Positions 43,597 to 56,240 of a DNA stretch of 64,000 bases are shown piece by piece. How positions within the stretch are numbered: the stretch's first letter is position 1; every line of letters starts with the position of its first letter. The translations under genes and the position numbers were made by a program. The notes under the pieces are model-generated. The model did no database searches. It had not been told where the DNA came from and saw only the letters and a program-made list of their open reading frames with translations. Origin of the DNA: Candidatus Latescibacterota bacterium (GTDB lineage Bacteria; Latescibacterota; UBA2968; UBA8231); the NCBI GenBank assembly GCA_965204725.1, contig OZ242005.1, forward strand, positions 96,001 through 160,000, read 5' to 3'.

Positions 43597-43720
43597 AAGT
43601 GGTCTGACAATCCACCTTGGGCGTGTTGAACAAGCCTCTTTCGTCATTCCCGCGAACGCGGGAATCCAGCCGGGATCGTTTAGACGCAAGCGACGACTAC
43701 CAGAGTTTGCAGGCCGCTTC
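43596..43720. mobile_element. MITE-like element containing a REP palindrome
   Basis: Ends GAAGTGGTCTG / CAGGCCGCTTC flanked by TTA on both sides; first ~40 bp shared with 62036-62194; internal REP CGTCATTCCCGCGAACGCGGGAATCCAG (43642-43669). Confidence 0.6.
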
Positions 43721-52762: not shown

Positions 52763-53668
52763 CTACCGCCCTTCCTCATCCATGAACTTCTTTATGTCCC
52801 TGCCGTAGCGCACGAAATTCTCCCGCTTTGCGCTATGCCCCTCAGAGTCAACTTTTAGACCAGCGTATTCCTCAGAATAGAAGGGCTTGCCATCAGCCTG
52901 CCCCCCCCAACCCGGAAAGCACGATCGCAGCCAATAGACCTTCCTGTTGTCTTCCTTTAGGCGCACGATATATGCGATGGAATAATCGATACCCTCTATT
53001 TTCTCAACCGTAGTCTTCTTGGCATTTTCATCAAAAACATGCCTTTCTGCTTGCCCGTGTGCATCATCGCCTTGGGTAATGACCACGTCAGGCTTGAGAA
53101 TACCCACTTCCTCGCTGAGATAGCCTCCACAATTCTTGTACAGTTGGGCAGGCTCTTGCCTTGATCCGCCCACGTTGGAGAAACACTTCGCCGTTCGCAC
53201 ATGAACGAAGAGTTTCTCTATTATCTTTAAACTATCGGAATCCTCTACTGGGTCCAAGCAGCGGTAAAAGGGATCGAGAAGGCTCCTAATGGTCGTTGTC
53301 GTCCCTCGCCAGTGCGAGTACGGGCGCAGCGAGAAAGGCTTGCTCTCCACTTGCTCTGGCTGCTTTAGCACTGGCTGCGGAGTGGACAGAGAGACCACCA
53401 CGATACGCGGGATGCGGTGGCCTTTGTACTTCTTTTTTATGTAGTATTGGCTGACTTTAACTCCCTGCGTCCGAGGGGAAAAGAGAAATCCATCTGAAGG
53501 TTTATAGGCTTTCTCACAGACCTCCCGACAGCAATCCTTCTTAGGACAACAGAAAGAGTCAAACATCTTTTCGTAATCGTAGTTGCCCTCCCTGTCTATC
53601 ACTCCTTTCACAGAAGCAATACCAACTTCCTCGTAATACTTTTTGAGTTTGTTCTCCATCTCATTCAT
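52763..53668 (-). CDS. Uracil-DNA-glycosylase-fold-like protein
   Basis: 'PRIVVVSL', 'HW.GT', 'AKC', 'NC..YL.EEV..LKPDVVITQG'; low GC. Confidence 0.55.
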   Translation of the reverse strand: MNEMENKLKKYYEEVGIASVKGVIDREGNYDYEKMFDSFCCPKKDCCREVCEKAYKPSDGFLFSPRTQGVKVSQYYIKKKYKGHRIPRIVVVSLSTPQPVLKQPEQVESKPFSLRPYSHWRGTTTTIRSLLDPFYRCLDPVEDSDSLKIIEKLFVHVRTAKCFSNVGGSRQEPAQLYKNCGGYLSEEVGILKPDVVITQGDDAHGQAERHVFDENAKKTTVEKIEGIDYSIAYIVRLKEDNRKVYWLRSCFPGWGGQADGKPFYSEEYAGLKVDSEGHSAKRENFVRYGRDIKKFMDEEGR

Positions 53669-53761
53669 GATTGGCTCCTTTTGACGTTTAATGGTTAAGA
53701 GCTTGTACTACTCGAAATCCCCCAAGGCATCACAAGTATTCTCTCGTCATTTGTATGTTGC

Positions 53762-53960
53762 GTATTCCTTTCAGCTAGGCCACTCTGAAAGGGCCGCGTG
53801 CGGGGCGCGTCGTCCGTCATTGGGTGCGCCGGCACGTCCGTGTCGGCGGCACCGTGCGGGAGTAAGACACCCCTCACGCTGAGTTGTCGCTCCGAACCGA
53901 TACAAGGGCACAAGGCCCGTATTACAAGTGGGGAGGACAGCACCAGTATCCATTATAACC
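53762..53960 (+). ncRNA. Putative IS110 bridge RNA
   Basis: 5' hairpin, then two internal-loop stems with target-matching (CGTCATT; GCGGGAG) and donor-matching (GATAC; TACAAGT) segments; ends approximate. Confidence 0.75.
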
Positions 53961-53974
53961 AGGAGGCGATTCGC

Positions 53975-54929
53975 ATGAAAGTTATGGCCGGTATAGACGT
54001 AGGAAAGAGGAGCTTGGACGTGTCGGTAGCGGCTGGTCCGGCGCGTCGATTTGACAACACGCCTGCGGGGCGTACGGCCTTGGTGGAGTGGTTGGAACGT
54101 CAGGGGGCGACCGAGGTAGTGTGTGAACCGACAGGGGGCTATGAGCGGCCTCTGGTGCGTCGGGTGCAGGCCACGGGATGGCCGATCCACCTAGTGCATC
54201 CCAATCGCGTGCGCCACTTTGCCCAGGCGGCGGGCAGCCCCGCCAAGACCGACGCGCTGGACGCACAGAGGCTGGCGCGGTATGGGATGGCCTTCGAGTT
54301 GCAGCGTCCGCTGGCCAAGGAAGCCGACCGGGAGGTGGTACAGGACCTGCTGCGGCGGCGCAAGCAGTTAGTCAACCAGCGGGTGCAAGAGCGCCACCGG
54401 CTAGACCAAGGGCAGACCGAAGGGGCGCGCATCTCTATCGAGCGGCACCTTCAATGGCTCGACGAAGAGATTAGCCAGTTGGACGAAGCCTACCAGCAGG
54501 CATTGGAAACACAGCGTCTCGCTGGCCGAAGCCGCCGCCCTCTACCGCAGTGTGCCGGGCGTGGGTGCGTTGACCGCGGCGACGCTAGTGGGGTATCTGC
54601 CGGAGTTAGGGCACTACAGCGGCAAGGAGGTGACCTCGTTGGTCGGGCTGGCTCCGTGGGCTAACGACAGCGGCCGACAGCAGGGGTATCGCTCGATCCG
54701 GGGCGGACGAGGCACCGTGCGGAAGGTGTTGTATTTGGCGGCCTTGGCCGCCATCCGCTGCAACGACGACCTCAAGCGGTTCTATCAACGACTGTGTACC
54801 CGGGGCAAGACCGGCAAGGTGGCCTTGGTCGCGGTGATGCGGAAGCTGCTGCTGGTGCTCAACGCCATTGCCCAGCGAGGCTCCCCGTGGGTCCAACACC
54901 CCACCCCAGCAGGCCACAAAAAGGCTTGA
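53975..54929 (+). pseudogene. IS110 DEDD recombinase/transposase with a +1 frameshift near 54507-54510
   Basis: 'GIDVGK', 'EPTGGY', 'KTDALDA' in one frame; 'SVPGVG..TA', 'GLAP...DSG', 'GK....ALVAVMRKL' in the next. Removing one A from GAAAC restores LEHSVSLAEAAALYRSVPG. Confidence 0.88.
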
Positions 54930-55037
54930 CCCGCAACACAGATACTCCCGCGAAAGCGGGAATCCAGTCAATGTTTGTAAGAGCGGCCGCCTTTGGAAGA
55001 CATCACTTATTGAATCCTCATATCCGCTTGATCTTCA

Positions 55038-56240
55038 TTATCCTTTGAGAATATGAGCAGGAGTACCTTTGTCGGGCATATTCTTATGCAGATAATAGGT
55101 ACCGTGAGTCTTCAAATAGTCCTGAAATGTCCCATCCTTAGCCTTGAGCTTTCTCCAGTTCTTTGTTAGGTCGAATTTGGCACGTTTAATACCATACCGA
55201 GCAAGGACGACCTCACCTGATCCTTTACCGGGAAAGTACAGTACAAAAATCACTTCATTTATTTTAGTAAATTCCTTGCGAAGATCCCTCGGAAATAAAT
55301 AGAAGCTCCTTTTCTCATTGAATAAATTTAGAATGAGACTATGCGACGCCTTCATCGTACGGACCGGGTGTGTAAGTGTTATTTTTTCATCTCCAAATAT
55401 GTCGATGTTGTAGGAATCACTACCTGCTCGGAGAGACACCGTCAGCCGACCATCAGTGAAGTCAATGTTCTTTATAAGCTTAACCCCGTCTAGTATCTTT
55501 TTCCCGTCTATAATCCTAACAGGTTCAAGTCCTGCTCGAAATATCTCTCCCTTTTCACTCGGACGAAATTTCCACAGAACAGCGAGTTCTACTAGTCGCT
55601 CAAAACTACCGCGCTTCGTAAATAAAGCACCTGAGTCTTCAAATTCAGATTCAGCTTCCCGAAATATGACAACCTGACTAAGTCGTGCAGCCTGTTGAAA
55701 TTGGATCTTGGCCTGTTCTTCCTCTGGATGAACCAAAGAATCCATAAAAACAGAATCGAAGTAGTAAACCTTATACCGACGGTAAAGGTTCACTCCTGCA
55801 GAGTCCGATAGTGATTTTGCCAGCTCATAGTCTCGTGCGTTAAGAGCAGCCTCAGCCTCACTTACTAGTCTTCTACCCTCTTCAAGGGCAGCCTTGAGAT
55901 CATCTAGGTAAGTTGGGTCCTTCGTTCGGCGGTATATCTCCTCGGCTTTTAGGGCCTCCCATCTATTGTTGGGCTCATCATCTTCCTTGTCATCAGGGAG
56001 GCTATCAACCAGTGCTTCTTTTTGTTTCTCGCCTTCCCGCGCCGTCTGTTGTTCTGGCGTCTCTGGCTCCGGAGAAAGGGCTACCGCAAGTCCGTAGGAC
56101 ACGTAGGACGGGATCAAATAGAGAGCCGCACGTTTTCTTGTTGGTATCTTGAGAAGAGGTATTGGTCGGATGAGTCCAACTAAGCATATGAGGAAACTAA
56201 TCGCTGCTATAATACGAATTGTGTCGGCTAGTTGTTCCAC
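55038..56240 (-). CDS. Hypothetical membrane protein (two N-terminal TM helices), low GC
   Basis: 400-aa ORF, GTG start with purine-rich leader; N-terminal 'LVGLIRP....IPTRKRA'. Confidence 0.7.
   Translation of the reverse strand: MEQLADTIRIIAAISFLICLVGLIRPIPLLKIPTRKRAALYLIPSYVSYGLAVALSPEPETPEQQTAREGEKQKEALVDSLPDDKEDDEPNNRWEALKAEEIYRRTKDPTYLDDLKAALEEGRRLVSEAEAALNARDYELAKSLSDSAGVNLYRRYKVYYFDSVFMDSLVHPEEEQAKIQFQQAARLSQVVIFREAESEFEDSGALFTKRGSFERLVELAVLWKFRPSEKGEIFRAGLEPVRIIDGKKILDGVKLIKNIDFTDGRLTVSLRAGSDSYNIDIFGDEKITLTHPVRTMKASHSLILNLFNEKRSFYLFPRDLRKEFTKINEVIFVLYFPGKGSGEVVLARYGIKRAKFDLTKNWRKLKAKDGTFQDYLKTHGTYYLHKNMPDKGTPAHILKG

Follow-up and report, generated by a model that had tools for sequence, protein, structure and literature searches.

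The 64,000-nucleotide window analyzed here (positions 96,001 to 160,000 of contig OZ242005.1 of a Candidatus Latescibacterota bacterium) carries, at positions 53752-54946 of the + strand, an IS110-group insertion sequence (1195 bp with one core counted) that lies in a repetitive extragenic palindrome (REP). The recombinase of this copy is inactivated, and comparison with its relatives indicates that its 223-nt left end very probably encodes a bridge RNA of the IS621 type. This reading is supported by complementarity, by covarying stems, by repeated insertion in the same REP word and by the covariation of guides and flanks in related elements. The element is a new example of a known bridge-RNA system, with a natural unequal first core base: the core is TT in the target and CT in the donor. 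Whether it belongs to a natural bridge-recombination system that works with such unequal cores, only the second core base needing identity, is in our judgement evenly balanced.

The host genome (5.43 Mb in 2 contigs, hereafter G000) contains, besides the window copy (copy A), a full copy B that is 97% identical, a copy C with an internal deletion, a 5' fragment D and two stubs, E and F. The ends of the element were set by comparing copies A-D with an empty REP. The left end starts with TGTATG and the right end closes with CAGATA-CT. Both parts of the split REP are read directly on the + strand: the left half, made of the left target CGTCA and the left-junction core TT, at 53745-53751, and the right part, made of the right target CCCGCG, a hairpin and GGGAATCCAG, at 54947-54968. 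The right-junction core CT (54945-54946, + strand), also read directly, is the same in relatives. An unoccupied REP of the same family, CGTCATTCCCGCGAACGCGGGAATCCAG, is read directly at 43642-43669 (+ strand), where the intact REP had been placed by an earlier reading of this DNA made from its letters only (the sequence-only reading). With a slash marking the end of the element, the left junction (53745-53757) is CGTCA-TT/TGTATG and the right junction (54939-54952) is CAGATA-CT/CCCGCG. Deletion of 53752-54946 regenerates the REP, and the empty REP plus the element gives both junctions with no duplicated bases beyond the core, as expected for IS110. By our reading, a single register of target and donor (CGTCA-TT-CCCGCG with CAGATA-CT-TGTATG) fits conservative recombination; in it, target and donor have only the second core base in common. 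The left end is 223 nt long (53752-53974) and the right end extends 17 nt past the stop codon (54930-54946). This is the long-left/short-right arrangement of the IS110 group (Durrant et al. 2024, PMC11208160), whereas end lengths are reversed in the IS1111 group. The REP word CGTCATTCCCGC has 95 copies in the genome and a looser palindrome pattern gives 424 matches genome-wide on both strands; the form of the REP is ATTCCC-N8-GGGAAT. Some REP copies (right flanks of copy C and of remnant E, and that of the related locus L024) have an extra GC-rich hairpin of ~30 nt inside the REP loop.

The four guide words proposed by the sequence-only reading are all read directly on the + strand where it had placed them, and the guide layout rules of Durrant et al. 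(2024, PMC11208160), together with the handshake rule of Hiraizumi et al. (2024, PMC11208158), allow their limits to be refined. The left target guide CCGUCAUU (53814-53821, + strand) is a sense copy of the left target plus the core TT; it matches the commonest REP 8-mer, CCGTCATT (38 copies), at 8/8 positions and its own site, TCGTCATT, at 7/8. The right target guide GCGGGAG (53856-53862, + strand) is the reverse complement of CT+CCCGC (7/7), is invariant in 8/8 relatives and makes a G.T wobble against the first base of the target core TT. The next two bases, UA (53863-53864, + strand), can be added as the target-loop handshake guide, being complementary to donor positions 6-7 (TA). Right target guide and handshake bases together (53856-53864) form a 9-nt stretch that is the perfect reverse complement of the right junction (54943-54951).

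In the donor loop, the word GATAC was correctly located but the guide is longer: ACCGAUACA at 53896-53904 (+ strand) is a sense copy of ACAGATA+CT at 7 of 9 positions, the mismatches being at position 3 and at the core T. The corresponding guide of relatives L024 and L031, ACAGAUACA, matches at 8/9. As for the proposed word TACAAGT, its first six bases are retained as the right donor guide UACAAG (53923-53928, + strand), which is the reverse complement of CT+TGTA (6/6), with one more A-T pair possible if one U is skipped; its last T fits better as the opening base of UG (53929-53930, + strand), the donor-loop handshake guide, which is complementary to target positions 6-7 (CA). The segment 53923-53930 can pair throughout with the left junction (53748-53755), one of the pairs being a G.T wobble. 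Both handshake guides (UA against donor TA, UG against target CA) fit the IS621 rule. Position 7 is A in both DNAs, so that handshake pairing with the cognate DNA is partly possible too; in IS621, such pairing with its own DNA slows strand exchange (Hiraizumi et al. 2024, PMC11208158). In the 64-kb window, CGTCATT followed after 25-45 nt by GCGGGAG occurs once, as does GATAC followed after 10-30 nt by TACAAGT, against 0.02 expected in each case (100 shuffles).

In order to evaluate the structure of the left-end RNA, the left ends of 8 clade members were aligned and an IS621-type structure of 45 pairs (356 cells) was scored. Pairing is found in 92.7% of the 356 cells. Sliding the 3' partners by 1-3 columns lowers this to 45-53%, a control in which the structure is favored since it was derived from one of the aligned sequences. 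Compensatory changes are found in 11 of the 45 pairs, a count reached in 5 of 500 shuffles, and covariation scores 0.213, compared with a mean of 0.101 after shuffling. An independent RNAalifold run returned the same five stems. The predicted RNA starts with an 8-bp 5' stem-loop (helix 1, 53767-53792, + strand; 90.5% of cells paired, 2 compensatory pairs). It is followed by the target-binding loop module (helices 2-4, 53796-53879, + strand), in which an outer stem pairs 53796-53805 with 53870-53879 around an inner hairpin at 53823-53853 (8 compensatory pairs), and by the donor-binding loop module (helices 5-6, 53883-53941, + strand), with an outer stem pairing 53883-53893 with 53932-53941 and an inner hairpin at 53906-53918. 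RNAalifold agrees with all three. Helices 5 and 6 are paired in 97.5% and 100% of cells; they are mostly invariant, with 1 compensatory pair. The target-loop/donor-loop layout described by the sequence-only reading is thus recovered, the target words flanking one covarying hairpin and the donor words flanking the second. Its placement of the words in internal loops holds with one qualification: the bracketing stems covary, but energy folds pair parts of the guide words together. The open internal loops are therefore predicted from the bracketing covarying stems and from the IS621 precedent, not from energy minimization. Of the folding and covariance-model check that it had suggested, the first part gave the covarying stems in 8 relatives, but the second gave no relevant match: a scan of 53600-55100 against Rfam 15 at E <=10 returned only H19_3, SNORA57 and DicF, which are weak, irrelevant and far below gathering scores, a negative that would count only if Rfam includes a bridge-RNA family.

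Other copies are found in the same REP word. All six copies of the genome are preceded by CGTCATT, the word that stands before the left end of the window copy (it is read in B, C, E and F, and in D with an extra A), and A, B, C and F are followed by CCCGC. Phylum-wide, 21 of 168 genomes, this one included, match the recombinase at E <=1e-20, and its nearest relatives are in Candidatus Latescibacterota metagenome-assembled genomes (63-77% identity). Relatives L024, L025, L031 and L038 are inserted at CGTCATT/CCCGC. Left junctions of relatives read TCATT/TGTATG in 22 of 26 cases, with CT in 1 and AT in 3, and at right-end loci GATA-CT is followed by CCCGC or a near variant in 25/25 (23 by regular expression, 2 by eye), as well as in L024 and L025; these counts inflate the number of independent events, since kin are not independent, several flanks in the related genome G123 are themselves repeats and some loci are possibly orthologous. 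The right end of L054 was left out, this copy being truncated by another REP. In G123 the left end is matched 15 times and the right end 14 times, for the most part where contigs end; the element is therefore multi-copy in that genome and breaks its assembly. The collection of further copies advised by the sequence-only reading thus places them, here and in related genomes, in one REP word, and the Pfam domains, the junctions and the genomic REP copies together bear out its description of an IS110 element in a REP.

A different question is whether the guides follow the insertion site when the site changes. This was examined with 17 elements from three clades (28-77% identity to P0001, the 317-aa recombinase of copy B) that have differing flanks. 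Their right ends were found through a match to the left donor guide, so that the test is independent for the target guides only. The exact 7-mer expected of the right target guide (reverse complement of the core plus 5 nt of the own right flank) is present in the element's own RNA in 10/17 cases, against 5/268 cross pairs, and the last 7 nt of the own left flank, expected of the left target guide, in 6/17 against 5/270. A best-of-9 mismatch scan separates own from cross pairs weakly (own mean 7.06 vs 6.03 for the left target guide, 6.88 vs 5.84 for the right). A decayed sub-lineage in genome G118 (L063, L067, L070 and L073) has its left-target-guide word changed to CGTGGAT. Its sites are GGTGGAT (twice), AGTGGATT (once) and CGTCATT (once), so that three of the four flanks agree with the changed word and the fourth disagrees; the flanks (G/A)GTGGAT(T) resemble the other arm of the REP. 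The sequence-only reading had considered that copies might lie at sites unrelated to the predicted guides; what is seen in diverse relatives is that guides change with flanks.

These results bear on another explanation, namely that the protein recognizes the REP hairpin directly, that the left end is just a leader and promoter and that the matches come from imperfect end repeats and a palindromic target. The right target is indeed the 5' arm of a hairpin, the donor-loop GAUAC and GUAU are mutually complementary because the ends of the element are, and in ISPpu10 the target stem-loop is reported to add specificity (10.64898/2026.03.19.712850). On the other hand, guide words vary with flanks across the 17 elements with differing targets, the bracketing stems covary while the words are invariant inside the clade, and experiments have demonstrated RNA guidance in the family (Durrant et al. 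2024, PMC11208160). We therefore regard direct hairpin recognition as very improbable; the hairpin may contribute alongside RNA guidance, without taking its place.

Besides the non-independence of the junctions, several observations weigh against the bridge-RNA reading. The single-sequence fold has a z of -2.27, a modest gain, 5 of 200 shuffles folding equally well. Energy folding, whether of the single sequence or with RNAalifold, pairs the 5' part of the left target guide with the right target guide, and GAUAC with GUAU; these guide-guide pairs never vary and are hence uninformative either way. A covariance model of the target and donor modules (R1) finds 4 of 20 distant loci at E <=1, three at full length and one for the donor loop only. 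Among the guides, the left donor guide of the window copy matches at 7/9 only and never pairs with the core T, and the UG of the donor-loop handshake might also pair with TA of the donor itself (U-A, G.T). L038/L070 has the guide word CGTGGAT yet is located at CGTCATT. Finally, the RNA, the circle and any activity are predictions from sequence. Transcription, RNA-protein binding, catalysis and the role of the wobble are what we infer, not what we observed.

An IS621-type bridge RNA is expected to have the same core (CT) in target and donor, and this is where the element departs from the type. The sequence-only reading had noticed a target core TT and a donor core CT, and REP counts and relatives' junctions agree with it: the genome's REPs have core TT in 95 cases and CT in 2, the left core is TT in 27/32 junctions (22/26 in relatives, 5/6 in own copies) and the right core is CT in 27/27. 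In 15 of 15 more distant elements examined, CT is found at both junctions. The left target guide itself has UU as core in 5/8 clade members, with CU in L026 and AU in L038 and L054. For the first core base, the left target guide has U, the left donor guide has C and each of the right guides has G. At position 8, the target's T is kept by the left junction and the donor's C by the right junction.

The unequal core could be an artefact, either because the boundaries are off by one base or because the left T mutated after insertion into rare CT-type REPs. CT-type REPs do exist (the 2 in the genome and another one adjoining L025), one left junction of G123 is CT (L062), three are AT, and copy D has an extra A. 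Against this stand the facts that one register alone reproduces both junctions, that TT so strongly outnumbers CT among REPs and left junctions while the right core is always CT, and that the left target guide itself is UU in most of the clade. Such an artefact therefore appears highly unlikely.

Under the unequal-core reading, the G in both right guides may recognize C through a Watson-Crick pair and T through a wobble, both before strand exchange and after it, and the first core base may act in the manner of handshake positions 6-7. The fixed outcome, in nearly all copies the target's T at the left and the donor's C at the right, may also mark inherited junctions as following the exchanged top strands. 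In IS621, almost no variation is seen at the second core T and more at the first base, top-strand cleavage follows T9, and once the strands are exchanged the right guides pair with the incoming core (Hiraizumi et al. 2024, PMC11208158); in a later paper of the same group, products are expected to be mismatched at two core-adjacent positions after bottom-strand exchange. Position 8 of the present element behaves in the same manner as these two positions. Published core reprogramming altered the target, the donor and all four guide positions jointly (Durrant et al. 2024, PMC11208160), and editing-site selection filters for matching cores (10.1101/2025.05.14.653916). A limited literature search for a described natural unequal core gave only ISPpu10, with a CT core, and from a search of this extent absence is not claimed.

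The recombinase gene (53975-54929, + strand) is frameshifted in the window copy. One base added near 54507 relative to copy B puts the C-terminal domain out of frame; the N-terminal frame runs from the ATG at 53975, and the C-terminal frame continues without interruption as far as the stop at 54927-54929. The frameshift suspected from the letters is thus real, and the window copy is unable to make the recombinase. Metagenome contigs contain both intact and frameshifted forms of the gene. Copy B has an uninterrupted 317-aa frame (P0001) in the same genome, which makes the repair of the frameshift called for by the sequence-only reading unnecessary. Residues 5-144 of P0001 match PF01548 (DEDD RuvC-like; E 2.2e-22, 79.9 bits against a cut-off of 29) and residues 189-271 match PF02371 (Tnp domain; E 5.3e-16, above the cut-off). 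Among PDB chains, the best match is ISCro4 (9t56; E 6.9e-37 over residues 5-305), and IS621 is matched at E 3e-35. Residues D8, E51, D93, D96 and S232 fall in catalytic motifs aligned to ISCro4, the context of S232 (NDSGRQ) being aligned with YESGSS.

The state of these copies raises the possibility of a dead relic, in which the element and its RNA are inactive in this genome and the guide matches are the fossil of past insertions. Of the copies in this genome, A is frameshifted, C and D have lost sequence by deletion or truncation, and only stubs remain of E and F; most copies in relatives carry stops, and there are only 4 larger copies for 95 available REP words. Yet the 317-aa frame of copy B is uninterrupted and includes every catalytic motif, and in a comparison of 1,224 bp A and B show 2 differences within the 223-nt RNA region against ~38 in the remaining ~1,000 bp. 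We consider a dead relic possible but less likely than not; in any case it bears on present activity, not on the identity of the feature. The window copy could itself be moved in trans, because its RNA region is nearly unchanged (2 differences from intact copy B) and both of its ends are kept.

Two putative promoter elements are found at the ends. A -10-like hexamer TATGTT lies at 53754-53759 (+ strand), within a left end whose bases 1-10 are invariant in 8/8 relatives, and a -35-like hexamer TTGACC, conserved in relatives, overlaps the stop codon at 54926-54931 (+ strand). TTGAC is retained in 23/23 of the right ends listed and in L087 and L093, while genome G141 (L024, L025) has CTGGAC. In a circle, 15 nt of right end and 2 nt of left end would form a 17-nt spacer between TTGACC and TATGTT; in the integrated state, the hexamer at -35 distance from TATGTT is CACAAG. 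This geometry suggests a junction promoter (TTGACC-17 nt-TATGTT) that would be present only in the circle.

By analogy with the IS621 model, excision would join the right end to the left end, and the joined ends would place TTGACC 17 nt upstream of TATGTT and turn on transcription. The transcript, of ~177 nt, would consist of the 5' hairpin and two loops, one target-binding and one donor-binding. The DEDD/Ser recombinase would cut both top strands after the common T and then swap strands, the handshake dinucleotides UA and UG pairing with the incoming strands after the swap. Each predicted bottom-strand reader has the base that fits its DNA (the left target guide U, the left donor guide C), and both top-strand readers have G, able to pair with C, or with T by wobble. 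The product would retain T at the left and C at the right.

Several one-ended remnants accompany the full copies. Two stubs, at G000:C1:1854869-1854930 and G000:C1:3366070-3366111, retain only the first ~33 nt of the left end, joined precisely at the boundary of right-end core and right target, and differ from each other by a CT; they possibly arose by microhomology deletion (in one of them ACTC is shared) or by recombination with an internal pseudo-site. In the mirror-image stubs L087 and L093 (genome G145), only the final ~100-130 nt of the element remain and are joined directly to CGTCATT, and the internal breakpoint of L093 follows CGCCATT (window 54863-54869), identical at 6/7 positions to the left-target-guide word. 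The use of these remnants as proof of recombinase activity was considered and rejected as undecidable, microhomologies of 2-4 nt explaining them equally well.

Runs whose Logan contigs contain the window segment 53300-55400 (21 runs, no RNA run among those listed) include sponge and marine metagenomes of several studies, and the host is probably a sponge-associated lineage. Joints in contigs of 4 runs match genomic copies (the skip 53781>54944 corresponds to remnant F and 54225>54544 to copy C); no go-back joint of a circle was seen in the contigs of these 4 runs, and contigs cannot reveal rare forms. The element is flanked by open reading frames at 52763-53668 (- strand, 301 aa) and 55038-56240 (- strand, 400 aa), for which a Pfam search gave no family at E <=0.01. 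By eye, both are far more AT-rich than the element; the genome is 60% G+C.

Among known systems, IS621 of E. coli is alike in many respects (PMC11208160, PMC11208158). Both have a two-domain recombinase (PF01548 and PF02371; E 3e-35 to the solved chain), an RNA in the left end with the order 5' hairpin, target loop and donor loop, left guides that are sense copies, right guides that are reverse complements and two handshake bases 3' of the right guides. Both also have a -35 in the right end and a -10 in the left end (putative in the present element), a similar donor word (ATA-CT-TGTAT) and a REP as target. The two RNAs are likened here by these layout rules. The Latescibacterota element differs in that it uses another REP family, has a right target guide of 7 nt instead of 4 nt, combines a TT target with a CT donor, has a left donor guide without a match to the core T and resides in an uncultured lineage from sponge and marine metagenomes. 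Longer right target guides were noted in other IS110s by Durrant et al. (2024, PMC11208160).

ISCro4/IS622 of Citrobacter rodentium (PDB 9t56) is the best PDB match, with aligned DEDD and Ser motifs; the similarity is at family level only, and the ISCro4 system was engineered with matching cores (10.1101/2025.05.14.653916). ISPpu10 of Pseudomonas putida is likewise an IS110 element inserted in one REP word beside a GC-rich stem-loop, with a junction promoter and a tolerance of wobble at guide interfaces (10.64898/2026.03.19.712850), but its core is CT on both sides. The dRS3 repeats of Neisseria have the same printed pattern, ATTCCC-N8-GGGAAT, and a site-specific phage recombinase inserts DNA there (PMC1797815). 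Neisseria belongs to an unrelated phylum, and the repeats are likened by pattern alone. The recombinase of the Neisseria filamentous prophages is presumably of the IS110 type.

Bridge RNAs were already predicted in 85.7% of IS110s (Durrant et al. 2024, PMC11208160), and REP targeting was established for IS621 (PMC11208160) and ISPpu10 (10.64898/2026.03.19.712850). Apart from the unequal core, nothing sets it apart from other IS110 elements that target REPs. Its contribution is a well-resolved natural set of guides, target and donor from a phylum without earlier discussion of IS110 elements: a literature search gave no paper naming both "Latescibacterota" and "IS110", and the readable supplements of Durrant et al. 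2024 (PDF supplement excluded) contain no instance of the target word or of "Latescibacter". The same genome also provides an intact recombinase gene that can be used for testing. Only the unequal first core base, together with the G in both right guides, makes the element more than a catalogue entry. If the system is active in this state, site pairs whose cores differ by C/T would become candidates for bridge recombination, and the strand origin of each junction could be read directly from its sequence. If the unequal-core reading is true, the "matching core" rule would relax to "pyrimidine-T with G in both right guides".

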